From positions 6,035,531 to 6,099,530 of the forward strand of contig CM119269.1 of the NCBI GenBank assembly GCA_051294375.1: a stretch of DNA of 64,000 nucleotides, in the 5' to 3' direction. Under the pieces are notes generated by a model. That model searched no databases, was not told the origin of the DNA, and saw only the letters and a program-made list of their open reading frames with translations. The position numbers and the translations under genes were made by a program. Position 1 is the stretch's first letter. Each line of letters opens with the position of its first letter. Of the stretch, positions 14,872 through 54,200 are shown piece by piece. Source of the stretch: Paraspadella gotoi (Eukaryota; Animalia; Chaetognatha).

Positions 14872-15690
14872 GATAAAGGGTGCGACTGTTTTTTTTCTTT
14901 CTGACATCAGAACGAAGTAGAACTGAAGAAAATAAATTAGTCACACAAAATAAATTAGTCACACTGAAAGGTTTTTGGCAGTTTTGATTTTTTTTTCCGG
15001 AGTTGAAGGATCAAAAGAAAATACAATTTTGCGAGGCTTAAATTAAAACCTCCCATGGCATGCTTCTATTTTTTAGAAAGCGAAAAAAAAGAAGATTTCT
15101 TTGAATTTGTTTTTTTTTTTGGTTTTTTTTTTTTAGAAAAAAAAACCTTCTTTACATTTTTGCAAAATATGAGGAAAATTCAGCCTAAAAAAAAAAGTGG
15201 AAAGAAATTTCGGGGAAAAACTCTTCATTCCTTTCGTTTCATTTTATCCTCGGAAATGAGGTCATAAAAAAAAAAAAGAAAAAGAAAAAAAAGAGAGAAA
15301 ACCGAGTTTGGGGATTTAAAAAAGGGGGAAAAAATTGAGGAGAGAAGAGAGAGCGCTCGACGCTTCTCCCCCCCCCCCCGCCCTCAAAAAAAGTCAAGGG
15401 ATTAAAACTTGGGATCGAAAAAGGAGCAAAAAAAAAAGGTGACTAAGGCGTCAGGAAAAAAAAAGGCTTGAAATTGGCAGAGGATGAGCGGAAGTCGGAG
15501 AATAAAGCGAATAAAAATCGAGACTCAAATTGATAAAAACATTGAATTGTATTGTAAAATAACTAAAAAATAATTAGATTTAAAAATATTTCTAACAATA
15601 AACTTATCAAATGAGATGATTGAAATAATTGTATTGTGGCAGCAAGACTTAAAGCTGCCTCACTGCTGTCCGTCCTCAGCCTCGTCTCAA

Positions 15691-15747
15691 TGGCTGAGCA
15701 GGCTAAATCATCTCATTCCATCCGTGCGTCCCGGGTTCAATCCCTGG
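15691..15747 (+). promoter_or_regulatory. tRNA-derived Pol III internal promoter (A and B boxes) inside copy 3
   Basis: A-box-like TGGCTGAGCAGG at 15691-15702. B box GGTTCAATCCC at 15734-15744, within a T-arm CCGGG-TTCAATC-CCTGG. Confidence 0.6.
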
Positions 15748-15758
15748 GTATCCCGGTT

Positions 15759-15795
15759 CTGGCTTAAATGTGACGGTGCCGGTATAAACATGCCA
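15759..15795 (+). ncRNA. 5' half of a type-P5 twister ribozyme (copy 3)
   Basis: P5 CTGGC; P2' ATGT (15768-71); GA; T1 CGG; P1 TGCCGGTA; TAA (15785-87); P2 ACAT; GC; start of P3. Confidence 0.75.
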
Positions 15796-17056
15796 GGCAG
15801 TGATTTCTATGCGGGTATTTTCAACAATGCAATTGAAACTTATATAACTATTATTTATTTATTCCCACTGACAAAAGAGAGAGATTCAAATGGTCAACGA
15901 CAAAAGTTCAAAATGGACAAATGGACATAATTTTTTTATTAAAAGTAGCAAAAAATGGTATTTANNNNNNNNNNNNNNNNNNNNNNNNNNNNNNNNNNNN
16001 NNNNNNNNNNNNNNNNNNNNNNNNNNNNNNNNNNNNNNNNNNNNNNNNNNNNNNNNNNNNNNNNNNNNNNNNNNNNNNNNNNNNNNNNNNNNNNNNNNNN
16101 NNNNNNNNNNNNNNNNNNNNNNNNNNNNNNNNNNNNNNNNNNNNNNNNNNNNNNNNNNNNNNNNNNNNNNNNNNNNNNNNNNNNNNNNNNNNNNNNNNNN
16201 NNNNNNNNNNNNNNNNNNNNNNNNNNNNNNNNNNNNNNNNNNNNNNNNNNNNNNNNNNNNNNNNNNNNNNNNNNNNNNNNNNNNNNNNNNNNNNNNNNNN
16301 NNNNNNNNNNNNNNNNNNNNNNNNNNNNNNNNNNNNNNNNNNNNNNNNNNNNNNNNNNNNNNNNNNNNNNNNNNNNNNNNNNNNNNNNNNNNNNNNNNNN
16401 NNNNNNNNNNNNNNNNNNNNNNNNNNNNNNNNNNNNNNNNNNNNNNNNNNNNNNNNNNNNNNNNNNNNNNNNNNNNNNNNNNNNNNNNNNNNNNNNNNNN
16501 NNNNNNNNNNNNNNNNNNNNNNNNNNNNNNNNNNNNNNNNNNNNNNNNNNNNNNNNNNNNNNNNNNNNNNNNNNNNNNNNNNNNNNNNNNNNNNNNNNNN
16601 NNNNNNNNNNNNNNNNNNNNNNNNNNNNNNNNNNNNNNNNNNNNNNNNNNNNNNNNNNNNNNNNNNNNNNNNNNNNNNNNNNNNNNNNNNNNNNNNNNNN
16701 NNNNNNNNNNNNNNNNNNNNNNNNNNNNNNNNNNNNNNNNNNNNNNNNNNNNNNNNNNNNNNNNNNNNNNNNNNNNNNNNNNNNNNNNNNNNNNNNNNNN
16801 NNNNNNNNNNNNNNNNNNNNNNNNNNNNNNNNNNNNNNNNNNNNNNNNNNNNNNNNNNNNNNNNNNNNNNNNNNNNNNNNNNNNNNNNNNNNNNNNNNNN
16901 NNTTCTTGATTAGAAAATGCAGCAGATGACTTGAATTAATTCCAAGTCCAGCCCTCTTTGTCTTAGGATTCAAATTTAATCAATATTGTTGGTAATATTC
17001 TAGCAATATGGCAAAAAGTGGTTTTTTTGCTGAATTCCTCGATAGAAATCACTGCC
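15796..17056. mobile_element. Unclassified TIR DNA transposon (interior mostly N gap 15965-16902)
   Basis: Perfect 15-bp TIRs GGCAGTGATTTCTAT (15796-15810) and ATAGAAATCACTGCC (17042-17056). 4-bp TSD GCCA at 15792-15795 and 17057-17060. Confidence 0.8.
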
Positions 17057-17103
17057 GCCAGTGACAGGAGGCGGTCACTGAGGGTCCGCAGCCCCTACGC
17101 CAG
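17057..17103 (+). ncRNA. 3' half of a type-P5 twister ribozyme (copy 3)
   Basis: P3 CAGTGAC/GTCACTG; P4 AGGG/CCCT around loop T-CCG-CA-GC, where CCG pairs with CGG at 15774-76; P5' GCCAG. Confidence 0.75.
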
Positions 17104-17669
17104 TTGGTGAGATACCCCGCGCCCCGGGTATCACAGGCTATCCTCCCGTTGCCATAGTATTCCGATTTTCTTACAATTTACATTAAATAAATTCTGACCT
17201 TTTTGAAATTATCGTGCTTCTCTCGGAAACTAAATTTTTTGATTGAATTTTGGTTTAATTTGGTAAATGTTGTCAAAGATGAAGCCTTTTCAACGTCCGC
17301 CAGACAAAATTGTCGCGAAATTTTTTTTTTGCTAAACTTGGTTGTTTTGTGATCGAGTTGTAAAGTTGTTGTTGTTGTTGTTGTTATTTGGTCCGTTAAT
17401 GGTCGTCGTTTTTTTACCATAAAAATCAACAAATATAAATAAACGTAAATAATATAGTTTATTAAACATTATATCTTAGATCATCATACTATTAGATCAG
17501 AAACAGACATACGGACAAATAGAATCTTGAGTCGCGGCGACGACGACGACGACGACGTCGACGACGACGACGACGACTTCAAAACCCGACGTCGAATTTC
17601 AATTTAAATTTTGATGCTTTTCCTCATAAATCTCGGACGACGACGGCGAAACGTCAAAGTGAGACGTCG

Positions 17670-21439: not shown

Positions 21440-22440
21440 ATCGCTCTCTCACTCTCACTCGTTCAAGTTCTATCGAGAAAGTCGTTCAGGTTCAAAGGAT
21501 CGAGATTCGAGACAAGAGGTAAATATGAAATTACATCCGGGAATTCGTTAAAAAAGGTGAGCATCAAACTCCATCCGGGGATTCGATAGAAGAGGTAAAG
21601 ATGAAATTATATACATACATTTAGTGAAAGAAAAAGATAAATTTTTATCCGTTGATTTTAAATACTAAATTTAGTCTAAAAGTTAAATTCACATCCGGGG
21701 AAGTTTGAAAATATCCGTTTAGCGAATGGATCGAATAAAATCTTTGCCCATTTTTTTGATCGCGTCGAATGTCCTTCCGTTTATAAATTTATTTCTCGTT
21801 TTTATTTTACTCTGACATTTTATTGTTGTTGTTTTTTTTTTTTGTACAGATATACATACATATAAAATAAAGCAAGCCTTACAAAGAAAATCTCTCTTTG
21901 AGCACAAGATCTTCGTTACAATAGTCAAACCTTTTTTCTCCAATTGTAACAATTGGCAAAAAGAAGACAATAGCATACAATACAATAAAATATAAAATAC
22001 AATACAATGCCTCTATAAGATTCTTTAATCGAGATTTAGTATCATTCTTAATCGTTAGGTAATCTACGAGACAAAAAAGTTCGGTTCATCCAATGTGTTG
22101 AGCCGAATTGACTCTTTTCACATAATATGACATGACATGACAAGACTTTCTTAGCTCGTGTATTTATTACATGCACTGAATCGAAATTCCGTCTTTTATT
22201 CTTTTTATTTTTAGGATTTCCTGAAGGCGGCGATAGCGGTCACTTAAATTTGATGTTTTTTCCTGTCTTAACAAATGAGCAACGAACTGTGGGCGATTTA
22301 TATGCATTTTTAATGTTAGTGGGACAGACCGACGGAGAGACATACCGACCGACCGACCGAAAAGTGACTTATAGAGCTTATAGAGGTTATATACTGATAG
22401 AGCTCCGCGAGTACTCCCGGCGTAACTAAAAATCGTTAAC

Positions 22441-22690
22441 TGTGGCGGTATATTCACACCGCCTCACGTCCACCGTCCTTCAGACAATCCCATTGGCTCA
22501 GAAGGGGAACACACAAAGCGTAGTGTTCCATCCACAGTCCTAACGACTTCCCTCTGCGTTGGCAAAGCGAGACCGTCCTAGGGTAACCGCGCCAGTGACT
22601 GGAGGCGTCACTGAGGGTCGGAAGCCCCCAAAGCCAACAGTGAGATGCCCCACCACAATGGGCATCACAGGCAACCCGGCTGTTGCCATA
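22441..22690 (+). mobile_element. 250-bp solo-LTR/retrozyme-like element containing a twister ribozyme (copy 1, complete)
   Basis: Ends TGTGGC...GCCATA form a short imperfect inverted repeat. 4-bp TSD TAAC at 22437-22440 and 22691-22694. Homologous to 24664-24901 (-) and 15635-17156 (+). Confidence 0.85.
22556..22634 (+). ncRNA. Type-P5 (circularly permuted) twister ribozyme; predicted cleavage between U22584 and A22585
   Basis: In order: GCGTTG(G) [P5], CAAA, GCGA [P2'], GA, CCG [T1], TCCTAGGG [P1], TAA, CCGC [P2], GC [T2], CAGTGAC..GTCACTG [P3], A, GGG, T, CGG [T1'], AA, GC [T2'], CCC [P4'], CAAAGC [P5']. This matches the twister core order UAA-P2-GC-P3-P4(U-NNN-AAGC) plus P2'-GA-NNN-P1. 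Confidence 0.8.
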
Positions 22691-24208
22691 TAACTCGTTA
22701 ATCTCTCCCTGAATTCCGCCAGAGCGAAAATACAATGGTTATATTGCATTACGCTCCGTCAATCTCTCAACTGGTCGGAGCCAGACCGGAAGACGATCGC
22801 GAAGCAAGTGGAAAGTAAGATTCCTTTATTTCTTATTTTCCGTTTTTCTTTTCTCTTATTTTTTTTTTCGTTTTTACTCCGCTTTATTTTCACTATCAAC
22901 ATCCAATTGTTATTGTTATTATTTTATTATTGTTATTGTTTTTAATCTCAATTATCATTATATCTCCTCGTGTATTTTACGTTAATACAACTTTTCTAAA
23001 TCATTCCTAATGAGAGACTTTTCGTGCTCCGGGGTCGAATCCGTAGACTTCAGTAAAGGCTCAAGGTCAAGGACCGGAAACGTCGTCAACTTGAAATGTC
23101 TCGAAGAAAGTTGCTAAAAAGCCGAAAAAATCTATCAAAAATCACTTGTACTGACAAGAGATTTTATTTGAGGAAAATGAGTGTATTTTTGAGTAGAGAA
23201 ATCAAACGATGAGTGGACTAATCAATTACAATGAGTGGGTAAATCTCCGAAACTATTTCGTAAAAGAATCGTTGAGGTCCCAGGCCATAAAATAAAATAA
23301 CTTTACTAAGAAGGAAAGGTTCCAAGAGAGGAAGAGAAAAAGAGCCCGCTTCACCTAAACTGCTTTGAGTAAGAGTGTGGAAAAAAAAGAGAGAGAGAGA
23401 GAGAGTTAGGTCAATCTCAGGTCACGTGAATGAGCCGGTAAATCACGAGATGAATGGTCCAGTAAATTTCGGGGATATCTGGAATGAATTTCCTCTGACT
23501 AGTGAAACTTCTTCTCACCAATGTTACTTAACTTCTTTGCTATCGCGATTTCCTTATGATCTTTTATCTTTTCTCGCTTCTTGCGAATTTTTAATTTCAT
23601 TTTATTTTCCATTTATTTTTTATCTTTCTTTCCCTTTCTTTCCTCTACCTAAAAAAACCATAAGACTAAGAAATACGATCAATAAATAAAAGCCTCGGAA
23701 TTCTGTAAATAAAACGCATGTTTTATTCTTCCCAGGAACTTTTCTTTTATTTACGTTAAAATATTCAATATCTCCGAACAGGTCTAACTTTTAAAAGGTT
23801 ACATTATTATTATTATTATCATTATTATTAATATTATTAAGTAGAAAAACTACGGAAAGAGGCAGCTCGTGATAAAAGATTCTGAAGCTAGCATATCGAC
23901 ATATTTACAAATCATTTTCTCGACGAACCAAATATTTTCAAAAACACAGTTGCTTTAGCTTTTTTCTCGATCACAAATTCTTTAGAAAAAAATATCGTCT
24001 GACTTTTGCTTAAATCTTTTTTAAGAACATTGCTCATTGCCCAACTGTTGCAAAGCCCTTGACCAACGTTGTCCCACTGTTGCCCGACTGTTGCGCGACG
24101 ACGAAAATACTTCTCTCTTTCGATTCTCAATTTCTGTCCGACGTCCGCCCACCAGTTTTCTCCGCTCCGCATCTTCGGTCGGACGGAGGAAAGGATCCGT
24201 CGAATCGA

Positions 24209-24663: not shown

Positions 24664-24901
24664 ACAGCCGGGTTACCTGTGATGCCCATTGGGATGGTGC
24701 ATCTCACTGTTGGCGTTGGGGGCTTCCGACGCTCAGTGACGCCTCCAGTCACTGGCGCGGTTACCCGAGGACGGTATCGCTTTGCCAACGCATAGGGAAG
24801 TGTGGATGGAACACTACGCCTGGGATGGTGTGTTCCCCCTCTGAGCCAATGGTATTGGCTGAACGATGGAGGATGTGAGGTGGTATGAATATACCACCAC
24901 A
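24664..24901 (-). mobile_element. Twister-bearing element, copy 2 (last ~8 nt of the 3' terminus missing)
   Basis: The reverse complement aligns to 22441-22684 along its whole length. It starts TGTGGTGG preceded by GTAT. Indels fall in loops or linkers. Confidence 0.85.
24713..24791 (-). ncRNA. Type-P5 twister ribozyme, probably inactivated copy
   Basis: Same 79-nt layout with a perfect P5 (GCGTTGG/CCAACGC). However, GA is changed to TA at the conserved general-base G, and P4 GGG is changed to GCG. Confidence 0.7.
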
Positions 24902-26544: not shown

Positions 26545-29500
26545 TCCGGCCCAGAAAATTAAATTTAGAAAAATTTTAAATCCAATTTTTCTCGATTTTT
26601 TCGATTTTTCATGAAACGAATCATTTGAGTTCATCTCAGTTTTCCTCATTCGTTTTAAATTTTTATCGTCGCGAATTTGTCTTCCGTTTTTATTTTCTTT
26701 CTTTCTTTTATTCTCGTTGATGCGTTGATGCGTCTTTATAGGGACTTTTTTTGGTTGCAGCTTAACTCCTCGATCGAACTTAGTAATAGGGAAATTTTTA
26801 CAACCAATGTAAAAATAATTGTCTCATTGAATAAATAGCCTATCTTGACTCTAACTATTGAACAGGCTATGTACGATTAAGCTAAACATCTTATTTTTTT
26901 TCATAAAATACAGTACGTATAATATAATTAAAACAAAAAGAGGAAATATCAATAGAGAGAGACTGACACGAAAAAAGGTTTAACTTACCCTCCGCAAGGA
27001 AAGGTCATAAAAGGTCAAAATAATCAGGCGAACGAGATTCCGTCTTTCTTATTAATTAGTTCTCGCCGAAGACGAATTGCCACGCCCACTTCCAACGTCA
27101 AATTTGACGTAAGATTAATTGCCACGCCCTCTTCGAACGTCAAATTTGACGTCGTTTCGCAAAATCGTACGACTTGAGGAAGAATTAACCTATAATTTCG
27201 AATCCGACCCAGTGCGACACACACACACACACACACACAACGCATTTGGCCTACGAGCCAGGCTGAAAAACTTGGCCCACCCCGATAGCTTTCGCCGTCG
27301 AATCGATTAGCATCCATGTCATTCACGGCATTTAATTATCATTATTGACTAATTAATCTATTCGTTGCAATTTGTGAAAGAATGAAGCTATATAGCTAAA
27401 ATATTATTTTGCTCCCTCTTTTCAAACCCCGGTCGCAAAACTTTATTTCGTTAAGTTATTCGGTATATTTTTCTAGACAAATGTATGAAATTGGTACAAC
27501 CAATATAAATATAAATATATTTGAATATATTTTCGTTTTCGCCACATTTTACAATTAGCCAACTCTCGATTTTGATTTCAATAAATCGATTCGTCTCATT
27601 TTATCTCGACCACCTCCGCTATCAGTTTTCTCATCTTCCATCTCTCTCTTTTATTTTCTCTCTCTGTATGATGTTCTTTTATTTTCGTCATAAATTCTAT
27701 TTCTAGTCATTAAATTCTTTTTCTTTTTATTTTCACTCTCCGTCCCATTCTCTTTCGTCATAAATTCTCGCACCAGCAATTTCCGAGAAATTCCTTTTTT
27801 TTCGTATTCTAAGTTACCATCATTCGCTTTCGTCTATCTCATACAATTAGAAATCACGTTTTGAGACTAGTTTACTACACATTCATTATTACTTACTTCG
27901 TCTTCCTCATCCTCTTCCTCCTTCTCCCTTCCTCTTACTTCACATTCCATCCTGCCTCCTTCTCCTCTTCATCTACCTCTCCCTCCTCTCCTCCTCCTCC
28001 TCCTCTCCTCCTCTGCCTCCCTCCTCAATCATTTCTTCGCGCTCCGATAATTCCGATTTCATCTTAAGTACTCGTAGGCCACTTCTAACCTCCCTCTTCT
28101 CTCTTCCTCCTCCCTCTTGCACATCCTTCCTGTGCCTCCCTCTTCCTTCCTCTCTTATCCAATCCTTCCTATCCTATTACCACCCGTCATCTTTTTCCTC
28201 TTACTATCACTCTCTCACTCCGTCCTCTCCTCACAACCAATCTTTCCTTTCTTCCCTCTTCCTCTCGCTTCTTTAAACATATTCTCCATTCACCCATTTC
28301 TGGCCGCTCCAATCCACTTATTTCATCCTCATTTCCTTCTACTCCTCCTCCTCCTCTAATGCTCTATGCCCTAAGATTCCCCTGCCCCCCCCCCCCGCCG
28401 CACGTTCCCCCACCGGATGCTCCCCCCTATAAAAAAAAACTTCCCAGAATCAAATCCGGCCCAGATGGCGTTCGACGTATCTAGTTATCTTGTCCATACA
28501 ATATTCGAAACGGCACTCGAAAAAAAGAGAGAGGGAAGCAAAAGAGAACTAATTTTTTTTAACCCGCACTGACCGTTTCGCGTGATCTAAGACACTTGGA
28601 CAGAGGAAGCATCTCGTTGACCTTTCCTCCTCCTTTTTTTCCTCGATTGGCTTATGTTTGTCCCGGTCTACGCAGCTCACAGTTTGTCTCCCTGGTCCCG
28701 ATCTCCGGTTCTGTTTTTCAGGCTTCTTCTCCGGAGTGTCGGGACAGCTATTTTTTTTTTTTTTTTTTTTGCGACTTCTCTCTTCGTCTTTTTGTCGTCA
28801 GTTCTTCCCGGGAATTTTAATACCAGCTCGTCCAACTCGCTTGAGCCTTTCCGTGACTATCCGCACATGATTGCATGCTTGAGCTATGAAACAGAGCGTT
28901 GTTTGCGTGCGCGCACGTTGCGCGTCAGCGTCTTATGAGAGCGACCGCACAACGTTGCGGTCGCGGAACGCTCAGAAAGAGATTTGGGGGCGTATTGGTT
29001 GAACGTTAACCTATGCCGAAATATTCATTTTTAGTACACCTTTTCGCTCCAGCTTGAGAGTAAGGAAGAGAGTAGATGAGAAAAGAGGAGAGAGAAGAGA
29101 GAGAGAGAGGAGAGAGACCAGAGCAGGAGAGAAGGACGAGAGAGACGAGGAGAGAGAGCGAGATGGAGAGGAGAGAGAGGACGAGCAAGAGAGAGAGAAA
29201 GAGAGAAGAGAAGAGAAGAGCGATAGCACAAAGCATCACTAGACGCAAGTTGGATGAGCCGAACGCTGAAGAATAATATTTGGTTAGCAAGGAGAAAGGT
29301 AATAGTATGGAGATTTTGCGGTAAAAGTGAAAGGTTTGTGAACGAAACGAGCTCCTCTGCTGCCTCACCGTGAGGAGCGTGAAAGTGAAAGAAGAAGAGA
29401 TAATGCGACCTATCAGAAGGACGAAACCAAAGCCGCCGAGCGATAGGGCGCTGCTTTACACGAAAATAGGGCTTTACTACTTCCAAAACTGAAATAAGGC

Positions 29501-32500
29501 TGCTCCACGAAAAGGGTCTGACTCGACGAACTAGTAGACAGGGAGCCTGCTACGCGAATAGTCGACAGTGAAATCACATACAACCCAATAGATGAGCAAA
29601 GGAATAAAGAAAGTAAGGATTTTCGCCGACATTTTCCCTCTAATTGAGAAGGTCATTAAATGATCGGAGAGGAAAGAAGGAAAGAGACAACCGTCGAGGC
29701 GAAAAAAAGTAATTGGAACGGGGAGGCAAATGATGGCTTCGAAGCGCCGTTGCAAAAATTTCATGGGAGTCAAAGGTTCGAATATACGAAGGACTCGTTG
29801 GCGGAAATGATGATGAAGATGAACTGATGATAGAAATTTGATGAATGAGATGCACTGAATCTGACTGATGAAACACTCTCATCATACATCTACAAAAAAA
29901 TGTGGTCACCTATATTTACTTACAGGCACCACGGTACACAACACCACGACAACCCACGGACACGACACCCGAACACAACCACAAAACCCAACAACATGGC
30001 ACGCACACACCATGCATCACCAACATTTTTATATGTGTCGACGCAACAGCCCCAAATAAGCAAACGCACACACACCACCCACACCTGGTGTGGGGTGTTG
30101 ATGGAGCACATCGAACGATGAATGATGAATGATTCAATTGATAAATGTAGAATGATGATGCATGATAAATGATGATGACGCATGCATGATGAACTGCATG
30201 ATCGATTACTCGTAGATGATCGAATGATGATGAAAATCAACGACGATGATGATGATACCGATAATGATGATGATCCACGATGAATGGATGAACGATCGAT
30301 GAACATCAACGATGATGATAATGATTGATCGATTATGATCGATGATGATGATGATCGATCGATTCACGACAAAATCAACGATGAATGGATAAGTGATGAC
30401 TGATAATGGATAAATGATGATGATAGATGATCGATGATGAAAATAACGATTGACGATGCATGATGATGATTGATGATGAGTGAATTATGAACTGATGACG
30501 GATGATGATGAATTGACTCGCACTGATGATGATGATGCATGATCGACAAGACGAAGTGCACCGATGACGACGCGCGCGGAGGAGCTGTGCAACACTTTGA
30601 GATTTCGCGTCTCCTTCTCAAACTTTTTTCTCTACTCGCTTAATTTTTTTTCTATCTCTTTTTTCTTCCCTAGCCTATCTCTTTTCTCCCTCTCTCCTCA
30701 AGGAGGAAAATGAGAGAGTGACTCCTAAAAACACACAAACCTCTGAAGCCCTTCCACCCAGTTTTCTCTCTCTTTTCTTCTTCTTATTTTCGTACCTCCA
30801 TTTCTTATCTCTATTCCTTTTTTTCCTCATTTATCACTTTTCACTTATATTACTATATTTCCGTCGGCGTCCCCTATTCCTCTGCCTCTTCGCTATTTTT
30901 GATAATCCATTTTCCGATTGAAACTCAAACGTGACTGGCATGAGCGAGGCCNNNNNNNNNNNNNNNNNNNNNNNNNTTTTTGATTCTCTCTTCGCTTTTG
31001 TCGTCAGTTCTTCCCCGGGAATTTTAAAAGCTCGCCCGCTCGCTTGGCTTTCCTTGCTCCGCTTGGTTGCCTGCTTGCTTGACAGCTTGTTTGCTTTCGT
31101 CGCGGNNNNNNNNNNNNNNNNNNNNNNNNNTTGTCTTCGTGTTGGAAATGATGATAGCTTCTTGTTTGTCATTTCCGCTTTCCTCTCTCCTCTCATCTCT
31201 CCTCTCTCTCTTCTCTCTCTTCTCTTCTCTCTCTCTCTCTCACTCGGTGCTTGCTTTTTACTTGAAATTTTTTCTATCATCTCCATTTATTTACATCGGA
31301 AAAAGGCGTTTTTCCTTTGTTTTTTAAAAGCTCTAGTTATCTCTTTGTTTGGAAATAGTCGATCTGGCTCTCTCATCTCTCCGTGCTGTCTAATTTCTAT
31401 CATTACCCGCTCTTTTCTTTCTCATCAAGGCTATAGGGATAAAGGGGCTACATTAAATTAAATCTGTTAATTTCGGCAAAACATATAGTCTAGAAAAAAA
31501 GCCGGCCTCATTTTCTTTATTTCTGATACGAAACGCCGCCCGCGACGGAAAGCAAACGAAGCTGTTCAAGCAAGCATGGCAAATAACCAACGCGGAGCAA
31601 GGAATGCCAGCCGGAAGCGGGCGCAGCTTTAAAAAGGATTCCCTGTGGTGGGAATGGAAACTGATCGTATAAAAAAACTGAAGAGGAGAATCAAAAAAAA
31701 AAAAAAAAAAAAAAAAAATAGCTGTCCCGAATCCGGAGAAAGGAAAGCCGGAAAAAACGAACCCGGAGATCGGGACCCAGGGAGATCAAACTGTGAGTGC
31801 GTTTGTAGAGACCGGGACAAAATAAAGCGCACATCAGAGGAAAAAAAGGAGGAAGGAAAAGGTCAACGAGATGCTTTCCTCTGTCCAAGGTCATAGTCAC
31901 GCGAAACGGTCGTGGGTTAAAAAAATTAGGGTTCTCTTTTTGCTTTCTCCTCTTCTCTTTTTTATCGAGTGTGCCGTTTCGAAATATTGTATGGCACAAG
32001 TTATGTAACCTAGATACGTCGAACGTCCTGCTGGGAGCAAACGGATTTTTGATTCTGGGAAGTTTTTTTATTATAAGGGGGGAGGAATCCGGTGGGGGGT
32101 ACGTGGCGGCGGGGGGGGGGGGCAGGGGAATCTTAGGGCATAGAGCATTAGTAGGAAGTGAGGGAGTTAGAAGTAATATGAGGAATGAAAAAGTTGGATT
32201 GTGACGGCCAGAAATGGGGAAGGATGAAATGAACTTTTGTTTATAAGAAGGAGAGAGACAGAGGAGAAGAAAAGGAAAGGAATTCGGTTTGTTGCCATGG
32301 GAGAGACGGAGTGAGAAGAGTGTATCATGTAAAGTAGGACAAAAGATGACGGTGGTATAGGAAAGGAGAGGAATGTGGAATCATAGAGTAGGAAGGAAGA
32401 GGGAGGTCACTAGGAATGGATCGTGATTAGAAGAGGGAGAGGAGGAAGAGAGAAGAGGGAGGTTAGAAGTGGCCTAACCGAGTAACTTAAGATGAATCGG

Positions 32501-34379
32501 AATTATCGGCAGCCGCGAAGAAATGATTGAGGAGGGAGAGAGGGATGGAGGGAGAGGAAAGAGAGGAGGCCAGGAGGGAGAAGGTAGTGGCACAAGTAAG
32601 GAGAAGGAAACGGAAGGAGAAATGGGTAGGAGGAAGAATGAATGAAGAGGAAGAGAGAGGAGAGAGGAGGAAAGAGTATGAGGAGAAGAAAGCGAGTAGG
32701 ATAGATGAATTGAAGAGGGTTAAATAGCGCAACTTATTTCGTGAATGACGCTCCAGGTAGACACGAAACACGAAATAAGAAGGTAAGATAGAAAAAAAAG
32801 GAGAATTTCTGAAAGTATTGGGCTGGTGCGAAGAATTTATGCGAAAAGAGAATGGGACGGAGAGTGAAAAATAAAAAGAAAAGAATTTAATGAACTAGAA
32901 ATATGAATTATAGATGGAAATATAAAATGATTTTCGATATCCATGAGAGTATGAAAATTGGAGAAGTAGAGAGAAGGAAGAGATTGAGATAAAACTGTAT
33001 TTATAAGCGGAAATGGTGGTCGAAAGATAACACTGAGTACTGACTATCCGATTAAATTGACATATCAAAATGCGAAGTTGGCTAATTGTAAAATGTGCGA
33101 AACGAAAATTAATTCAAATATATTATATATTATATATTTGTTGTACCCAATTTATACATTTGTCTGAAAATATTCCGAATCAAACAACGAAATAAAGTTT
33201 TGAAAAGAGCGGACGCAAAATTATATTTTCGCTATAATACGCTTCTTTCTTTCAATCAATTGCAAGAATGATTAATTAGGCCATAATGATAATTAAATGC
33301 CGGAATGACATGGATGCTAATCGAATTCGAACGGCGAAAGCTATCGGGTGGGCAAGTTTTTCAAGCTGGCTCGTAGGCCAAATGCGTTTGTGTTGGTGTG
33401 TGTGTGTGTGTCGCACTGGGTCGGATTCGAATTATAGGTTATTCTTTCCCCTCAGTCGTACGATTTTGCGAGACGTCAAATTGACGTTCGAAGAGGGCGT
33501 GGCAATTAATCTTAACGTCAATTTGACGTTGGAAGTGGGGCGTGGCTAATTCGTCTTCGGCGAGAACTAAATATAAAGAAAGACGGAATCTCGTTCGCCT
33601 GATTTTGACGTCTTTTTGACTTTCTTGCGGAGGGTAAGTTAAAACCTTTTTTTCGGTCAGTCTCTCTCTAGTTGATATTTCCTCTTTTGTTTTAATTATA
33701 TTATACGTACTTGTAGTTTATAGACAATAAAAATATAAGTATGTTATAGAAGCTAAATACGTACATAGCAATCCGTCTTCAATAGTTAGAGTCAGATAGG
33801 CTATTTATTCAATAGAACATTTTTTAGATGGTTGTAAAATTTCTCCGCTTAAACTCATGATGTATTCGATCGAGGAATTTGAACGACGTGGACACGGTAC
33901 CTAAATAAAGTCCCCTATATTAAGACGCGCATCAAATCTTGTGCAATTATTCTATAATCATGTGATAATACTATAGAAAGACAAGTAAAATTAAAGACTG
34001 GAGTAGACATTTGTGAGACGTATCAGGGATATCGTTAATTCAAATTTAAAAACACGAATGAGAAAAATTAACATGAGTGGATCGCTCTCTATAACATGGA
34101 TATGTCACAGCTATTTCTATATATATTGCAGAGGCTATCTTTTACAATTGGATTGAAAAGAGTGTGTTAGTATACTATTTGCTTTGGATATTTAAAGATA
34201 TGTTTTTTTATACTTCAAACTTAATTTTCTTCTCGTGTGGAGAAGTATCGTCCTGCCCGCGTGGTATAATCGAGACTGACGAGTTTTTATCGGAACTCCT
34301 TTTACTTTAGAAGAAGTCGTATATATATTGATCGTTTATACCGCTTGTTTTGTTTATAATATTCGTTTTGTATGCATTG

Positions 34380-37300: not shown

Positions 37301-40172
37301 AATTTTGTTTTTTGTGTGCGTCCTCATCGCGGAAGCAATAATCATGGCATAAAAAACGAAAAGGGCTAGGACTTGACTTGACGTTGAAAAAGGGTGGCCC
37401 ATTTTCGGTCGGTCGGGGTCCGGGGTCGCTCCGTTTTGCGTTCCGTCCGTCGTCGTTCCGGCTCGCACGACAAATCTAAATTCAGAAATTAGTATTGTAA
37501 ATCCAGTCGATTGTTCTTCCGATTTTTTCGATATTTCATGAAACAATCCAATCTTGGGAAGTGATCACCCATTAAAGTTGATAAAGAAATAAAATTTTTT
37601 CCATCATAATCCCAGTCTTAAAAATTTTACTCGTGACGTCGGGGAGGAATTTTGATCATTCCGGTTGTTATAAGATAGTTTGATTACTTCTGGTCCATGT
37701 TATTCTTTTAAGATGTCTGCGGTAGTATTGGGCTTGGGATGCGGATTCGTTTAATATGGGGACTGGTAAAAGTGCGGACGAAGAGTGCCAATGTGTTATT
37801 GGGGCATGGCGCAGCTTATACTCGCGTCAGTATCGAACTTGTAAGTAAAATGGGAAATTTTTAGCAAACACAAGTGTAATAATAATAATGTCTCATTGAA
37901 TTATAGCTTCTTGACATGCTAAACTGATTGTGTAGGCTATGTACCGATTAGGCTAACATCTAGTAATTTTATTTCATAAAGATACATCAGATACGGTTAT
38001 AGAGTATAATGTAAGAAACAAAAGGAGGAAAATATAAGTGAGCAGAGAGGTACTGAACAGGAAACAAAGATTTAAACGCTCGTTACCCTGCCGGCAAGGG
38101 AAGGTCATAAAAGGCTCCTAAGAAATAAATCAGGCGGAACGGAAATAAGAGATTCAGCTTGTGCTTATGTTAATTAGGGTATCTCGCCGAAGGACGGAAT
38201 TGCCAACGGCCCATATCCAATCGTCTAATATTGCTGACGTAAGGATTTAAGTTGACCAACGCCCTCATTCGAAGGTCAATTTGACGAGTCTTTCGCAATC
38301 GTACGAAAATTGAGGAAGGAAGATTGCACCTAAATAATTTCGGATCCGACCGCAGTTGCGACACACAACACACACACACACAACAACGCATTTGGCCTAC
38401 GAAGCACCTAGAGGCTGAAAATAACTTGGCTGGAAAAAGCAAAACGTCGACACCAAGCCGAACTAGCTATTTCGCCGGTCGAATAAGATTAGAGATCCAT
38501 GTCATTGTCACGGCAGATTTAATATGAGACCTTGATCATCATATTGAGCTCTAGGCTTATATATTGCGTTGCAATTTGGAAAGAAAGAAGACTATAATAG
38601 CGAAAATATTATTTATGCTCACGTACTTTGTCAACTTTATTTCGTGTGCGATTATGCGGTGGCAAATAAAATTTGGTGTCATAAGACGAATGTATGAAAT
38701 TGGGTGCGCACTTGTGTCGGCGACAAACTATATTGAATATCAGATGATATGATGAGATGACTAAGTGATTTCTGAACTTCGTTTCCCGCGGCCGTGACAA
38801 TTATTTAAGCGAACTTTGGAAAACGGACCACTCTCGGATTTTGGGATTTACTAAATACGATGTAGGAGTTGCGCGTGGCTCCGATTAATCTCTTGCGGAC
38901 CCACCTCCGCTATCGTGTTTACTCAATGCCTTCCAGTGCTGCTATACTCTTTATTTCCCCTCCCGTCTAGGATACTGATGTTCTTTTGTATATGTTTCGG
39001 GGTCCTATAAATCTCCTCAATTTCTAGTCCATTGAAATTTCTTTTATCGCTTTTTATTTCGTCACTTTCCCCACGTCTCCGTCCCATTCTCTTTCGGGTC
39101 CATAATTGTCTCCGCACAGCACTGTTCCGTAGGACAATTCCTTGTTTTGTCTAGTTTCTAGGACACAGAATAAGAGAATCCTCCTCGTCGGTCTCCATAC
39201 ATTAGAAATAGGTTTTTTGCCTATCCGTTATTATCTTCTTCCATTATTACTATTGTCCTTCCCTCATTGTCTCTTTCTCCTTCTCTCCCCGTGTCCTCCC
39301 TCGTACTCCTTCCGGTATCCATGTCCCTCTTCTCTTCTTTTCTGTTGATCATTCCCCCCTCCTCCCCCTCCCTCCCTGTGCGCTTCTTCCTCCCTTGTCT
39401 GCCGCTGCCTCCTTCCCTTCCTTTCTTCTCGCGTTCTGACTTTTGGCTTGCATGCGGTGTCGAGCTCCTACATTGACGGCTTTCTTCGCCGTGGCCTTTG
39501 GTCTGGACGCGTCGCCTCGCTCAAAGATCGAGGATTCTCTGGCGCTCCGATAATTCCTGGATTCATGGCTTAAGTCATCGTAAGGCCACTGGCTAAAACG
39601 GTCCCCTCCCTCTTCCTCCTCCCTTCCGTCGCTTGCTACTGGGTGGCCCTCCCTCTTTGTCCTATCAAATCCCTACTAGTCTCTAACTTCTCTCCCTTCC
39701 TCTTCATTCCTTTTCCCCTTCGTTACTTTTTGTTGTTTTTCTCTCTACTTCCTCGTTCTTCTCTCCCATGGTCGCGCCCTGAACTGAGGTCACATATTCA
39801 TTATCCCACAAATTCAGGAGTATTAAATGCTGGCTCAGGAGAGAGAGAGAGAGAGACAGAGAGGAGGAATGAGGAGACGAGCAGTAGCAGGAGAGACAGG
39901 ACGAGACGAGGAGAGCATGTCCACTTAGGCAGAGCTTCTAGTAGATGCTAAGAGAGATAGAGCAGAGTCCTACTCACTCGCTAAATGAATACCCTCTCTT
40001 CATTTTGGAGAGCTTCTAGACAATTCATCACACGCAAAGAGGAAGAATATTTTTTCAAGGGAAAGGATTTGAGTTTTCGTAAAAGTGAAAGGTTGTGAAC
40101 GAAACGCTCTCTGTGCCTCACCGTGAGCGGCGTGAAGTGAAAGAGAGAGATTGCAAGAAGCGCCACCGCCAG

Positions 40173-40261
40173 CGAAATAGGGCTGCTCACGAAATAGGGC
40201 TGCTCACGAAATAAGGCTGCTCACGAAATAGGGCTGCTCACGAAACAGGGCTGCTCGCGAA
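40173..40261 (+). repeat. 17-mer minisatellite (CGAAATAGGGCTGCTCA)n, ~5 units; degenerate counterpart at ~29440-29560
   Basis: Direct reading. Confidence 0.9.
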
Positions 40262-40469
40262 TACACGTGAATCACATACAAAAATAGATGAGCAAAGGAA
40301 TAAGAAAGAAGGATTTTCGCCGACATTTCCTCTAATTGAGGGTCATAATGTGGAGGAAAGGAAAGAGACACGTCGACGAAAAAGTATTGGAACGGGGAGG
40401 CAATGTGGCTTTGCGAAGCGCCGTTGCAATTTCTGGGAGTCAAGGTCGAATTCGAGGACTCGTTGCGGA

Positions 40470-41005
40470 AATGATGATGACGATGATGATGAATGATTTG
40501 ATGCAAATCAAACGCATGATTGTGTAATGAATGATTGATGATGATGATGATGATGATGATGATTGATGATGAAATCAACTGATGATGATGATTGATGATA
40601 ATGATAATGATGATTGATGATGATGATTAATGATGATGATGATGATGATGATGAAATCAACGATGATATGATTGATGATTATGGTGATTGATGATGATTG
40701 ATTGAAATCAACGACGATGATTGATGATGATAATGATGATGATGAGTGATGCATGATGATGATGATGATGAAATCAACGATGATGATAATGATGATGATT
40801 ATGATGATTATGATGATGATGATGATGAAAATTCAACGTTTTTGATGATGAAAATGAGATAATGATAATTGATGGATGATGATCTGATGATGAATGAAAT
40901 CAACGATGATGATGATGATGATGCATGATGATGATGATTATGATATGATGATGATGATTGATGATGATGATGATGATGTGATGATGATGATCAGACGATG
41001 ACGAT
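40470..41005. repeat. Imperfect (ATG)n/(GAT)n microsatellite with periodic gaaatcaac interruptions; counterpart at ~29800-30560
   Basis: Direct reading. Confidence 0.9.
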
Positions 41006-41827
41006 GACCCGAGGGCGGAGAAGCTTTGTGAATGAATTTGACATTTCGTCCTTAAATTTTTCTTTCTTTTTTTTCTTCTCTTTTTTTCCCGCCTCTCTTT
41101 TTCCCTCTCTCTCAAGGAGGAATGAGGAGCTGACTCCTAAAAAAAAAAATCTGCCCTTCACAGTTTTTTTTTTCTTTTCTTATTTTCGTATCATTTTTTA
41201 TTCTTTCTTTTTTTTCCTCATTTATACTTATTATATTATATTTCCGTCGGCGTCTATTCTTCCTTTCCTTTTTGAGTAATCCATTTTCGATTGAAACTCA
41301 ACGTGACTGATGAGCGAGCGAGGCTTTGAAAATTGGGCGTCGTCGTAGCCTCCATCATCGGGTGGGGGTTGCGTCGGGCGTCGGGCATCTAATGGTCAGC
41401 AGAGACGGCGTCGGGCTGGCGATGATTGATGCCGAGCGATGCAATTTCGATCCGATGATTATGATCGGATAATTGTAAATAGGTTGTACCAATTTCTTAT
41501 ACATGATGATCTTTTAAAAGGGCCCAAAAACCATATTCCTGCCCCCCCAAAACAATTGGTTCACTCCTCGCCACTGCACTGTTCGGATACGATATCATTT
41601 TTCCATTTCCGACTTCGAATAAAAAAAACTCCGCGCGCGATTTTCTCGCCAGCGTTTGTTCGCTCTGTGTTTGTTTTGTGTTTGTTTTGTGTTTGTTTTG
41701 TGTTTGTTTTGTGTTCTGAGTTTGGAGATGTTTTCCTGTTTTTCTGTTTCGCCAGAAGTTTTGTTATGATGCGAAATCGAATTCTGATCCCGACTTCCTG
41801 GACGTGAGTCCCTCGTCGTGTCGTGAT

Positions 41828-48400: not shown

Positions 48401-48719
48401 CAAAAAAATAAAAAGAAACTATAAAATATTGAATCACGTGAAATTTTTTTTTTGCACGGGAACAGTAACGTTTACGTGCCATTTTTCATTGTGTCATAAT
48501 ATACAAATTTATAATATTGATAAAATTTTGAATATTTTTCCATGCAACTCTACTGACGATGGTAGCTAAAATTACTCAATAATCTACCAAGTAAAACTTA
48601 GTTTGATATATATTTTCTCACTATAAACTCCCTTTTACTCGAAATAACGATTTTTAACCACGGAAAAAAAAAATTTCTCTTCTAACTGAAATTTGAACCG
48701 GAGTTCAAATTTTGACGTC

Positions 48720-50122
48720 AAAACGGCCTCCCATGATTCATAAGCCACGAACGTGTACATCGCCCACGGCGTAACGGTCGATGATATTATTTGTGTTTGC
48801 CATTACATCTACATATGATGCATCGACTCAACCTTGACAACTCAAAGAATTACCGGCAGTTCGTAACCTTTTCTCGATATTTTCACTCGAGTCTGTAAGA
48901 AACATTTTCTTTCTGTCGTGAAGCAAAAATCTTCCACAAACAAAGAGGCCCGAAACGCCTGTCCCTCCGATGCCCCAATCCCTTCTCAACACAGTTGGCC
49001 ACTCCCACCCACATCACCCTTACCACCCCCGCCACCCTATATCCCCAGCCTCCCGCTCACCTTCGCCAGGATTTGTTATGATTAGCGTTGACGGTTGAGA
49101 CTTTTCGAGTTTTATTGCGAAAATCCTCAGTCGGACAGGAAGGGAGAGATTCGATGGGAATTTCAAACGCTGCTCTCTACTTGGTGATTGCAGAATGGTG
49201 GGGGTTAAGTAAGGGTTTTAGTATTATTAGTAATTAGTATTAATATTAGAAAAATATGTACCAAGGGGCACATTTTTATCAAGGGGATTAAAATATTTTT
49301 TTTTACTATTCATTATTATTCATTATTAATAACGATTTACCATTTATTGCTATTTATGACTACATAATACCTATGACTATCTAGCTATTAGCTATTATGT
49401 ATCTATTATCTATTTACCATCTACGACTATCTTGTATCTGTTATAAATATATCAGAATACCCGACTTCTTCGGCAAATCGCAGTTTTCACAGTACGTAGA
49501 TATAACAGCCCACCGCTGTACCACGGGGAGAATTTCTCTGGTCGCCCATTAATGTTAATGCGGTGAGGAAGCGAAAAAAGGGGGGGTGGGCGTATGGGCC
49601 TCTCCCATTGGTGACAGGGCAATCATTGCAACGGAAAGGGAGACATGGAGAGAAAAATGGGTAGATAATAAATAGAATAAAATCGCAGAAAAAAATGCAT
49701 TGGGTTGTATAAAAGGGTGGGAAGCTATTTGCCGACACGAAACTTTCCAGCCAAATGAGCGCAAGAACGACAAATAAATACGACTCGGCGCTAACGCGTC
49801 AGCAAATGAAGATGTTTTCGCCCAGCATGAAGCAATCGAGCAATGGAAGCCAGGTGAAGGAGGCGATATGGTTGCGGTAGATTAAATGCGCGGGCACAGG
49901 CGGTTCCGGCTCGAGCTGCAAGATCCCCAGCTTCTTTTTCTTGAAGCCTTGATACGCGACTAGGATATAACATAACGCTCAGCGAACGCAGCGGTCGCAA
50001 AAACTGGCAATCAGAGAGTCACAGACGTCGCGCCTTTGAGAATTTCGCAATAAGACAACAAGAAGAGAAAAGAATTGGGGTTCCCGTTTCGCTTCGAGTC
50101 TCGAGCGGAATACTTATTTCGA
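48720..50122 (+). CDS. Frameshift-noisy exons of a possible multi-pass membrane protein (GPCR-like TM5-loop-TM6 pattern); mirrored on the - strand at ~52362-54010
   Basis: A manual consensus of the two arms gives YIAHGVTVMILFVFAITSTYMMHRL (hydrophobic), a Pro/His/Ser-rich stretch, then RRSAFEILAKRQQKRTELSSLSLRVS.VILISECVLVTI. Donor AAG|GTAAGT at 52362/52361 (-). Indel correction is needed, so the call is tentative. Confidence 0.3.
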
Positions 50123-51247: not shown

Positions 51248-54200
51248 ATATTAGCGAAAAACTAACTTTCTAAATGTATCTTTGAGTCTTTCTCTCTTTT
51301 AACTCGAAATTCAGTCGCGATTCAGATTCTTCGACACGCATCGAAGAATCTAACGTTAAACGTCTCGATCGGTGCCGACGATTCCCCCGAGCGTGAAAGG
51401 CCAGTGTACAATCACTGGTCAATGGTGAAGAAAGCTTGATAAATGTGAGTCGTGATTGCAAAGCGAAGTGGAAGATTTGGCTGTGTTGTCGCTTCAATAA
51501 GCGGGCGAACGCACCGAAGCGAGACGCCCGTGGTACGTTGCCAAGGGGCGTCGGTTCCATGAAGCGACTTGCTAAGGGGCGACGTTGCCAAGGGCGGTCT
51601 AAGCCAAGAACCCCTCGTTGCCAAGGCGCGTTAACGGCCCGTCGCGAATTAACGGCGAGTCCGTTTCCGGTCAAAGTTTAACGTCACTTTCCGGAATTTA
51701 ACTGCGTTGGGAGACGCCGTATTACACTGCCCCGTAGGGGCACGGTCCCAACTCTTCAAATCCTTTCCTCTTTAAAAGGAAAAACTCGTGATCCCCGAAA
51801 ATAAACCCGGAATCATCCGCGAGAGAAGAGAGAAGAAAGAAGGGGAATAAATTCGGTCCTCGGTGCTTTGCTCTCTCTCTCTCTCTCTCTCTCTCCCTCT
51901 CTCTATCTCTCTGCTCTCTCTCTCTCCTCTCTCTCTCTTCTCTCTCTCTCTTCTCTCGCGCGCGTGACAAAATGGTATCATGCCTCCCGCTCGTGAACCT
52001 TTGTACCTCTCCTCTCGTCTCGTCTATCACCAATCATCTCCTCTCTCTCATCGGCCAACGCCTCTTCCGGGTTTCCGCGAAGGATAAAATGGCCAAGTGC
52101 TCTTTTCCGAGAGAAATGCGATAAAAAATGTGGAAGATAATGTTTTTTATGTGATTTGGTGGAAAAGAGTTTTGAGATACTGGACTGCGTTGTAAGATTT
52201 TCTTGTTGAGAGGGCTTGTTTGCACCGATAACTTCATTCATAACAATGATATACAGAAAATAAGCTAGACAAACACATAAACCATAACTGATAAACCAGC
52301 TCAAATAGATTTGGGTGTATATTTTTGTTAATATAATAAGTCGCACTCATACATAACTTACCTTATGCACATCTTTAAAGCGCCCCATTTGTTTCAAAAG
52401 GAAAGACGTCCTCGACTCTTCTGTCTCGAAAAGTCAATCATCGTTATCGCGCAATCGTCGTCCCCATGCGTCGTCGTCTGTCGTCATCGTCTCTATGGTA
52501 ACGAGGACGCATTCCGAAATAAGTATTACCGCTCAGAGACTCGAAGCGAAAGGGAACTCAATTCTGTTCTCTTTTGTTGTCTTTTTGCGAGAATCTCAAA
52601 GGCGGAGCGTCGTTGACTCCTGATTGCAGTTTCGCGACCGTGCGTCGCTGAGCGTTAGCGCGAAGTGTTATATCCTAAGTCGCGTATCAAGGCTTCCCGA
52701 AAAAGAAGCTGGGATCTTGCAGTCGAGGCCGACCGCCAGTTCGCATAATCTTCGCAAAACAATGGCCGTTCTCACACTGGTTCCATTGCCTCGAATTGCT
52801 TTTATTTGCGGAGAGGCGTAAACACATCTTCATGTGTGAAGTGCTGGACGCGTTGCCGAAGTCGTTTATTTGTCCGTCTTGCGTCATTTGCTGGAAAGTT
52901 TCGGTGTCGCAATAGCTTCCCACCCTTTTATACAACCAATTGATTTTTTGTTTTTTTTTCTGGATTAATTCCTTGTCGAAGCTATTTGATTTAAAAAATA
53001 ACATTTTAGAAGGCAAGTATTTAATTATCTAACCATTTTCTCTGCCATCATCCCTTTCGTTTGCAATGATTGCCGTCACCATGGGAGAGGCCCATGCGCC
53101 CCCCCCTTTTCGCTCCTCACGCATTAACATTAATGGGCGACAGAGAAATTCCTCCCCGTGGTACAAGGCGGTGGGACTGTTATATTCTAGCGTACGGTGA
53201 AAAACTGCGATTTGCCGAAGAATCGGTATTCTGATATAAGTTTTATAAGCAGATGAGCCAAGATAGTCCGTAGATGGTAAATAGATAATACGATACATAA
53301 TAGCTAATAGATAGATTAGTCATAGGTATTGATGTAGTCATATAATAGCATAAATGTAAATCGTTATTAATAATGATAATAATGAATAAGTAAAAAAAAA
53401 AATATTTAATCCCTGATAAAAACTGTGCCCCTTGGTACATATTTTCTCAAATAATTAATACTAATTACTAATAATACTAAAACCCTTACTTAACCCGCAC
53501 CAATTCTGGCAATCACAAGTAGAAGCAGCGTTTTTGAAATTCCCATCGAATCTCCTCCTTCCTGTCCGACTGAGGATTTTTGGGCAATAAAACAGACTCG
53601 AAAAGTCTCAACCGTCACGCCTAATCTAACAAATCCTGGCGAAGCGTGAGCGGGAGGACTGGGATATAGGTGTGGCGGGGGTGGGTAGGGTGATGTGGGT
53701 GGGTGGCCAACTGTGTTGAAAGGGATTGGGGGCATCGGAGGGACAGGCCGTTTCGGGCCGTCTTTGTCGCGGAAATTTTTGCTTCACGACAGAAAAAAAA
53801 AAGTGTTCTTGACAGACTCGAGTGAAAAAGTATCGAGAAAAGGTTACGAACCTGCCCGGTAATTCTTTTGAGTTGTCAAGGTTGAGTCGATGCATCAATA
53901 GGTAGAAGTGTAAATGGCAAACACAAAGAATACGCAATAGACCCGTTACGCGACGCCGTGGGGCTGATGTACATGTTTCGTGGCTTTATGAATCATGGGA
54001 GGCACGTTTTTACGTAAAATTTGAACTCGCCGGTTCCAAATTTTCAGTTAGATGAAGAATTTTTTTTCGCGTGGTTAAAATCGTTATTTCGAGTAAAAGG
54101 GAGTTTTATAGTGAGAGAATATATGTCAAACTAAGTTTTAAACTTCGGAGATTATTAAGCTAATTTAGCTATCAATCGGCAGTAGAGTGAGGGAAAAATA

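Follow-up and report, generated by a model that had tools for sequence, protein, structure and literature searches.

A candidate type-P5 twister ribozyme in the LTRs of a Ty3/Gypsy-type element family

Plant LTR retrozymes are the LTR elements for which RNA circles have been shown (Cervera et al. 2016, PMC4918200). In the accessible parts of the recent literature, LTR retrozymes are tied mainly to plants and the twister ribozyme to non-LTR elements (PMC7761336, PMC6765202, PMC9695139, PMC11722881, PMC5680766, PMC10085705, PMC13725137, bioRxiv 10.64898/2026.07.22.740005); one review alludes to insect elements that carry type III hammerheads (work in preparation). Among animal LTR elements, Helenus has A and B boxes in its LTR, a 4-bp target duplication (TSD) and a primer site (PBS) for a tRNA 3' end (Kojima 2024, PMC10886601). 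The CsRn1 clade of Ty3/Gypsy is marked by a 4-bp TSD, by TGT...ATA or TGT...AAA ends and by the tRNA-Trp PBS TGGTGA(G/C)CCC (Bae et al. 2008, PMC2582038). Within twisters, the P5 stem is found in 1% of cases according to the available text of a review (PMC6154101). A search confined to the open-access literature, without Repbase, Dfam or subscription papers, gave no report of a twister located in an LTR.

Here we describe a family of short LTRs that contains a candidate twister. An nhmmer search over the window, the whole stretch of 64,000 nt analysed here, gives three matches (copies 1, 2 and 3) and no further ones. Sequence and nhmmer both confirm what the initial annotation had proposed, namely three copies that start with TGTGG at the coordinates and strands of Table 1. 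It was also right about two intact copies with exact 4-bp TSDs, TAAC and GTAT: both intact copies (1 and 3) have TGT...ATA termini and an exact TSD, and from the window composition the two TSD matches would arise by chance with a probability of about 2e-5. Copy 2 is 85% identical to copy 1. Copy 3 is more distant. Its last 100 nt match at 77%, and in its 5' half 89 of 150 aligned letters are identical, which is above all 500 of 500 shuffles.

Copy 3 is a 257-nt unit once a nested TIR element is removed. The uninterrupted joint from 15791 to 17057 is present in 18, 11 and 5 contigs of three public sequencing runs, hence copy 3 is an intact unit that was split by a later TIR insertion. The nested element (15796-17056) sits inside the twister of copy 3. 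Judged by its sequence, copy 2 is likely dead: the catalytic G and one P4 pair are mutated and the 3' end is missing. GTAT is found at the left end of two of the three window copies.

The window itself is repeat-rich eukaryotic DNA without an identifiable gene. A Pfam search of 145 of the 238 candidate reading frames gave only low-complexity or sub-threshold matches, and ARAGORN found no tRNA in the window. Copy 1 is inserted in the end of a short repeat (22320-22436) with a (GACC)n-type microsatellite, which is multi-copy by depth in run X1 and resembles Helitron-related interspersed elements. Elsewhere the window holds a tandem array at 55962-56914 (71-bp unit, 13.5 copies, 89% alike) and degenerate kilobase-scale repeats without Pfam matches, direct and inverted and 67-82% alike (26793-28770, 31699-33842, 37832-41318; 48523-50121 versus 52515-54209).

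Table 1. Positions of the element copies and of their observed and predicted features in the window.
Feature	Position	Strand	Remarks
Copy 1 (solo LTR, subfamily 1)	22441..22690	+	TGT...ATA ends; TSD TAAC on both sides
Left 4-bp TSD of copy 1	22437..22440	+	repeats at 22691-22694
Copy 2 (subfamily 1)	24664..24901	-	last 7 nt absent; without 3' TSD
Copy 3, 5' part (subfamily 2)	15635..15795	+	left TSD GTAT at 15631-34; holds 5' hairpin, box A, box B and twister 5' half
Copy 3, 3' part	17057..17156	+	twister 3' half and tail; right TSD at 17157-60
Nested TIR element splitting copy 3	15796..17056		multi-copy; perfect 15-bp TIR; 4-bp TSD; 938-N gap inside
5' hairpin, 6 bp	22444..22463	+	preserved via two-sided changes in copies 2 and 3
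Two 3' hairpins	22644-66 and 22670-87	+	
Box A-like motif, copy 1	22494..22505	+	TRGCY..GG type; motif definition from Kojima 2024
Box B-like motif	22523..22533	+	single mismatch, a C at the R57 position, in copy 1 and copy 2; fails strict pattern
Box A, copy 3	15691-702	+	
Perfect box B, copy 3	15734-43	+	
Predicted type-P5 twister fold, copy 1	22558..22638	+	
P5, copy 1	22558-63/22633-38	+	
P2, copy 1	22567-70/22587-90	+	
GA, copy 1	22571-72	+	
T1 pseudoknot, copy 1	22573-75/22619-21	+	
P1, copy 1	22576-77/22582-83	+	
P1 octamer	22576..22583	+	2-bp hairpin or self-complementary duplex
UAA, copy 1	22584-86	+	
T2 pseudoknot, copy 1	22591-92/22624-25	+	
P3, copy 1	22593-99/22607-13	+	
P4, copy 1	22615-17/22626-28	+	
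Predicted cleavage site U/A, copy 1	22584..22585	+	by homology to Rfam P1 consensus
Predicted cleavage site, copy 3	15785/15786	+	

Twelve public runs contain parts of the stretch. The evidence that we take from them consists of assembled contigs, and summed contig depth was not taken as copy number. In run X1, 94 contigs diverge from copy 1 at 22441 and 170 at 22690, into unlike flanks. In run X10, 25 contigs share the 5' end of copy 1 and 39 share its 3' end, with many unlike genomic flanks. Runs X8 and X10 are presumed to be RNA runs; none of the runs is on record as RNA. Contigs compared with copy 3 likewise leave the reference at 15635 and 17156. Because the contigs break at the LTR ends into differing flanks, the family consists of two multi-copy subfamilies with precise ends. 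AT-alternating majorities flank both LTR ends in the run contigs, a hint of a target preference.

Some contigs continue into what lies beyond the LTR. A single contig of run X8 spans 22516-22690 with two differences and then enters, 2 nt past the LTR end, a tract headed by TGGTGAGCCC. The same TGGTGAGCCC-headed tract is entered, likewise 2 nt past the LTR end, by a contig of run X12, which comes from a separate study and carries a subfamily-2 variant. In another X12 contig a G-rich purine tract (PPT) lies 3 nt upstream of the TGTGG start. The same junction letters close the majority rows of 7 contigs (X10) and 26 contigs (X1). The tract behind the LTR matches the tRNA-Trp PBS TGGTGA(G/C)CCC in two contigs, and 11 of the first 13 PBS letters fit the tRNA-Trp shown in Kojima's Fig. 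S2, which is that of the bee and not of the host. These two are the only contigs in which the PBS is seen, and their samples are labelled organism B and biofilm metagenome, neither of them organism A; for organism A, mixed majority rows are the one place where a PBS could be concealed. PBS and PPT junctions occur in separate contigs. There is no two-LTR copy among the three window copies and the run contigs, which extend at most 30 letters beyond the LTR. The X12 contigs with the PPT-start and end-PBS junctions have depths of 20.6 and 24, close to that of the LTR body, a weak hint that most LTRs there lie between a PPT and a PBS (in tandem arrays or circles).

The PBS tract runs on into the complement of a tRNA T-arm, at a distance 3 nt shorter than a complete tRNA would give, which suggests a two-part primer site. 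When a longer T-arm pattern was searched, 60 of 62 matching loci were tRNAs, a fraction biased towards tRNAs by the added T-stem letters. The tRNAs found are from phage and of many isotypes. None is a tRNA-Trp, so the pattern speaks for a likeness to the T-arm and not for an isotype. The 14-letter T-arm motif alone is uninformative (2 tRNAs among 120 loci), and the PBS motif occurs in the window at chance level (2 matches versus 1.8 expected). The PBS pattern was matched 25 times in metagenomes, each time without the LTR. Viral contigs contained no match to the PBS and PPT motifs, and neither metagenome nor viral contigs matched the core motif.

All three cis marks of the CsRn1 clade are matched: the ends, the 4-bp TSD and the Trp-type PBS. 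On these signals we read the 250-bp unit as a solo LTR whose ends, TSD and primer site are those of CsRn1-clade Ty3/Gypsy elements. The initial annotation had read the copies as solo LTRs or monomers of a non-autonomous retroelement. The PBS and PPT junctions in the contigs, together with the three CsRn1-clade marks, support solo LTRs of a Ty3/Gypsy-mobilised element. As to monomers of a tandem type, no head-to-tail joint is among the joints listed.

In copies 1 and 3 the twister core blocks follow each other in the order P2'-GA-T1'-P1-UAA-P2-GC-P3-P4/L4, closed by P5. A structural descriptor of this P5 layout, composed after the sequence had been seen, matches copies 1 and 3; among 20000 dinucleotide shuffles of each it matches none for copy 1 and one for copy 3, and it finds one site in the whole window. 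Copy 2, in which a T (24776) replaces the G of GA and one P4 pair is disrupted (24731), does not match. Hence the original claim that each copy holds all twister core elements in P5 order stands for copies 1 and 3 and falls for copy 2. Both pseudoknots, T1 and T2, pair in copies 1 and 3, T1 with a two-sided change. Both copies have the catalytic G and the U/A site, where X1 shows no common variant. The cleavage sites are predicted by the rule given in the available text of PMC8501958.

The two subfamilies also covary. Seven of the 26 core pairs differ between copies 1 and 3, and all seven are paired in copy 3. Five of the changes are two-sided and paired in both copies (P5, P2 twice, T1 and P1; null p 0.0025 in a test of two sequences), which upholds the covariation of the core helices claimed at the outset. 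The helices of copy 1 need some redrawing. P5, first given as GCGTTG/CAAAGC, is better drawn as GTTGGC/GCCAAC, homologous to CTGGC/GCCAG in copy 3. P2, first given as the helix GCGA/CCGC, keeps three pairs, and its fourth position is an A-C mismatch in subfamily 1. UAA, GA, both GCs of T2 and the pseudoknot pairing are common to both subfamilies. Of the X1 substitutions listed at a frequency of at least 5%, the 117-nt 5' part holds 19, and the 81-nt ribozyme holds two, each of them within the P3 loop.

Covariance models, a check put forward in the initial annotation, back the twister only weakly. In narrow Rfam scans twister-P1 is the top match on both subfamilies, with 17.6 bits (E 0.12) and 14.1 bits, far below the gathering score of 67.2 bits for that model; the P5 and P3 models are absent from the scan's listing. 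The twister-P1 model aligns UAA, GC, P3, P4 and L4, as expected when a permuted form is compared with a P1 model. The Rfam scan of the whole window gave 18 matches, mostly microsatellite artefacts, and no ribozyme. Neither the whole-window nor the narrow scans contained a hammerhead match.

The twister helices are not the minimum-energy fold. They lie about 10 kcal/mol above it in copy 1 and 12-20 kcal/mol above it in copy 3, with pseudoknot energy excluded. In the isolated core of copy 1, P5 has a pair probability of 0.98-1.0, and the 5' strand of T1 can alternatively pair with P2. In copy 3 the predicted pair probability of P5 and P2 is near zero. On the sequence comparisons, the type-P5 layout is well beyond chance and covaries between the subfamilies, and we regard it as a candidate ribozyme.

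P1 of the candidate is weak. In copy 1 it has 2 bp with a 4-nt loop, and as a hairpin it is predicted at +3.6 kcal/mol versus -11.0 kcal/mol for a self-duplex. The P1 octamers differ between the subfamilies, yet both are self-complementary (about -11 kcal/mol as a duplex), and the majority loose-end rows of subfamily 2 show a perfect palindrome at the octamer. A CNNG tetraloop could account for the P1 palindrome; we estimate a chance of about 1 in 16 for both subfamilies. A P1 completed in trans is possible, but the tetraloop explains part of the palindrome. Natural twisters with a short or absent P1 do cut, as the available text of PMC8501958 reports.

Upstream of the twister lie putative Pol III promoter boxes, which the initial annotation had missed. 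The box A motif is present in all three copies, about 54-57 nt from the LTR start, and box B of copy 3 lies 43 nt beyond its box A. Promoter, ribozyme and PBS are on one strand and in the expected order. About 150 nt follow downstream of the promoter boxes, without a T-run longer than 2 in the window LTR copies. TTTT is also absent from 84% and 59% of shuffles, so the lack of a T-run is weak evidence alone. By sequence, the A and B boxes tie the element to Helenus/TRIMp3.

The likeness to Helenus/TRIMp3 comprises the A and B boxes in a short LTR, the animal-type 4-bp TSD, a PBS for a tRNA 3' end, a PPT and many solo LTRs. In contrast to Helenus/TRIMp3, about 150 nt with the twister follow the promoter here and there is no T-run. 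In most animal Helenus LTRs of the PMC10886601 supplement the tRNA part lies, by eye, near the LTR 3' end, often followed by a T-run. In the available text of that paper the word 'twister' is absent and 'ribozyme' appears only in a reference title. On the motifs searched, no Helenus family listed in the available supplement has a sequence match to our element. The Trp primer decamer does occur in two internal sequences of Kojima's consensus file, Helenus-2_SyJa and Helenus-2_SyUm, both from gall wasps (PMC10886601). According to supplement DataS1, these elements have 277-nt LTRs with a TGTGG start and A and B boxes in the 5' half, and internal parts of 485-487 nt. Behind the Pol III boxes their LTRs hold, when read by eye, an apparent type III hammerhead. 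It has a GUC site, the cores CUGAUGA and GAAA, three stems, and loops I and II that are complementary to each other. This hammerhead is identical in both species though the flanks differ, and the available text of PMC10886601 does not mention it. If this reading of the wasp LTRs is correct, Trp-primed elements carry ribozymes of two unrelated classes in one and the same slot of the LTR, which suggests that the ribozymes are interchangeable.

With plant LTR retrozymes, as far as described in the available text of PMC4918200, the element shares a ribozyme in the LTR (here a predicted one), the 4-bp TSD, PBS and PPT of a Gypsy helper and solo LTRs. It differs from them in having a twister and not a type III hammerhead, a Trp-type and not a tRNA-Met PBS, internal Pol III boxes and CsRn1-type ends; circles, shown in plants, are here predicted. 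The element would work like an LTR retrozyme, but with neither hammerhead nor Met PBS it falls outside that group; on the features compared it fits Helenus. The CsRn1 clade (PMC2582038) has the same TGT...ATA ends, 4-bp TSD, PBS TGGTGA(G/C)CCC and PPT. This likeness is one of cis signals, whereas autonomous members of the clade also encode Pol and a Gag with a CHCC motif. Unlike our element, the CsRn1 accounts in the available text of PMC2582038 contain neither ribozyme nor Pol III boxes. The twister T-variants of Perere-3 (RTE) in Schistosoma are likewise weak-P1 twisters in a retrotransposon (Liu et al. 2021, PMC8501958). Perere-3, in that account, is a non-LTR element with a type-P1 twister at its very 5' end and begins at the cut site, whereas here the predicted cut site is in the middle of the LTR and the layout is P5. 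Animal non-LTR retrozymes are small non-coding elements with a ribozyme, as is proposed for the element here, and some close a weak helix by forming dimers; in contrast, they are described with a type I hammerhead, in tandem arrays, without LTR, PBS or PPT, and as Penelope-dependent (available text of PMC7229834; bioRxiv 10.64898/2026.07.22.740005).

To explain this combination of features we propose, with moderate confidence, a non-coding mini-retrotransposon that is transcribed by Pol III, whose RNA is cut to unit length by the predicted twister and which is copied via a circle. Plant retrozymes (PMC4918200) and the ligase-driven circles of animal retrozymes (PMC7229834), as the available texts describe them, are the models from which we infer that the element is non-autonomous, is served by a helper, and has an RNA that is transcribed, cut and circularised as proposed. 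The DNA itself shows the anatomy: the LTR comprises a short leader, tRNA-like A and B boxes, the type-P5 twister layout and two hairpins, with the PBS after it and the PPT before it. Pol III would initiate near +48 of the 5' LTR and, as the window LTR copies hold no T-run longer than 2, would transcribe the internal region and continue into the 3' LTR. In both LTRs the twister would then cut at +144/+145, leaving an RNA equivalent to one LTR and without a terminal R repeat. Since a P5-type cut leaves two large ribozyme halves, the RNA ends could pair again via P5, P2 and T1 and be ligated to a circle, either by the ribozyme itself or by an RtcB-type ligase. With tRNA-Trp as primer, a CsRn1-type reverse transcriptase would copy round the circle, which would replace the first strand transfer, and a CsRn1-type integrase would insert the product and duplicate 4 bp of the target. 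Solo LTRs would arise via recombination between LTRs or from short cDNAs. More speculatively, two copies may pair with each other via the self-complementary octamer and so build the weak P1 in trans.

A wider proposal is more tentative, and we would lean against it for now: that there are overlooked LTR retrozymes outside plants which are CsRn1-dependent, primed by tRNA-Trp and driven by Pol III, with the ribozyme slot filled by unrelated ribozymes (a type-P5 twister in this element and a type III hammerhead in those of gall wasps). Such retrozymes would replicate via RNA circles, and a P1 completed in trans by the two LTR copies would make a double twister, like the double hammerhead.

Alternatively, the twister could merely form the 3' end of the transcript in place of a T-run terminator. 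The 5' LTR copy would stay mostly uncut, the R repeat would extend from about +48 to +144 and ordinary strand transfer would follow without circles. The spacing from promoter to cut site would give an R of about 97 nt, and the weak P1 and the competing fold would slow cutting. Furthermore, by eye, most animal Helenus LTRs in the available supplement end soon after the tRNA part, many with the T-run that is lacking here. However, the full LTR is not predicted to form the helices any better than a transcript beginning at the tRNA part does, and hence no switch is evident by which the 5' copy would be spared. The 5'-OH or the uncut heterogeneity would be wasteful, and plant LTR retrozymes of the same layout make circles (available text of PMC4918200). 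We consider a pure 3'-end former unlikely.

It is similarly improbable, in our view, that the copies are solo LTRs of an autonomous CsRn1-clade retrotransposon in which the ribozyme trims the RNA end or aids cap-independent gag-pol translation. All three cis marks are those of autonomous CsRn1 elements, whose LTRs measure 146-381 bp in the available text of PMC2582038. Help with translation is a role that ribozymes can have in viruses and non-LTR elements (PMC13725137, available text), and the contigs do not contain the internal region beyond 30 letters at most. The Pol III boxes, on the other hand, argue for a short transcript (Kojima 2024, PMC10886601), the Helenus elements that are primed by tRNA-Trp and offer a parallel are non-coding, and a Pfam search of 145 of the 238 reading frames gave no retroelement match, though in a window that has only solo copies.

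We doubt even more that the element is an ordinary Helenus-type TRIM which captured a twister and now carries it as a structural passenger that does not cut. Such a passenger would fit the low Rfam score, the 2-bp P1, the A-C mismatch in P2 of subfamily 1, the alternative folds and the loss of the catalytic G in copy 2. Against this, UAA, GA, the T2 GCs and the pseudoknot are kept though the 5' halves of the subfamilies share only 89 of 150 letters, common variants avoid the twister core, and a short or absent P1 leaves natural twisters able to cut (PMC8501958).

Short imperfect inverted ends and a 4-bp TSD are also compatible with Ginger elements, a tRNA-like promoter suits SINEs, and all three window copies are solo. 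Even so, a SINE of the non-LTR kind and a MITE derived from a Ginger-like DNA transposon are both very improbable and largely refuted by the PBS and PPT junctions in contigs, the internal promoter, the two precise ends and the lack of a tail.

Twisters are widespread and have few assigned roles, and in retroelements they have been reported for non-LTR (RTE) elements. For LTR elements, accounts of an RNA-circle cycle have so far been limited to plants and their hammerhead ribozymes. A twister that follows a Pol III promoter within a CsRn1-type LTR would join Helenus, retrozymes and CsRn1 helpers, and it names a helper clade that can be tested. Together with the wasp parallel, it suggests that self-cleavage as such is what is needed. 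A natural P5 twister with a near-absent P1, as predicted here, escapes current covariance models, so others probably remain uncounted. The family would offer a small, high-copy system for asking whether, in LTR replication, a circular RNA can stand in for the first strand transfer.
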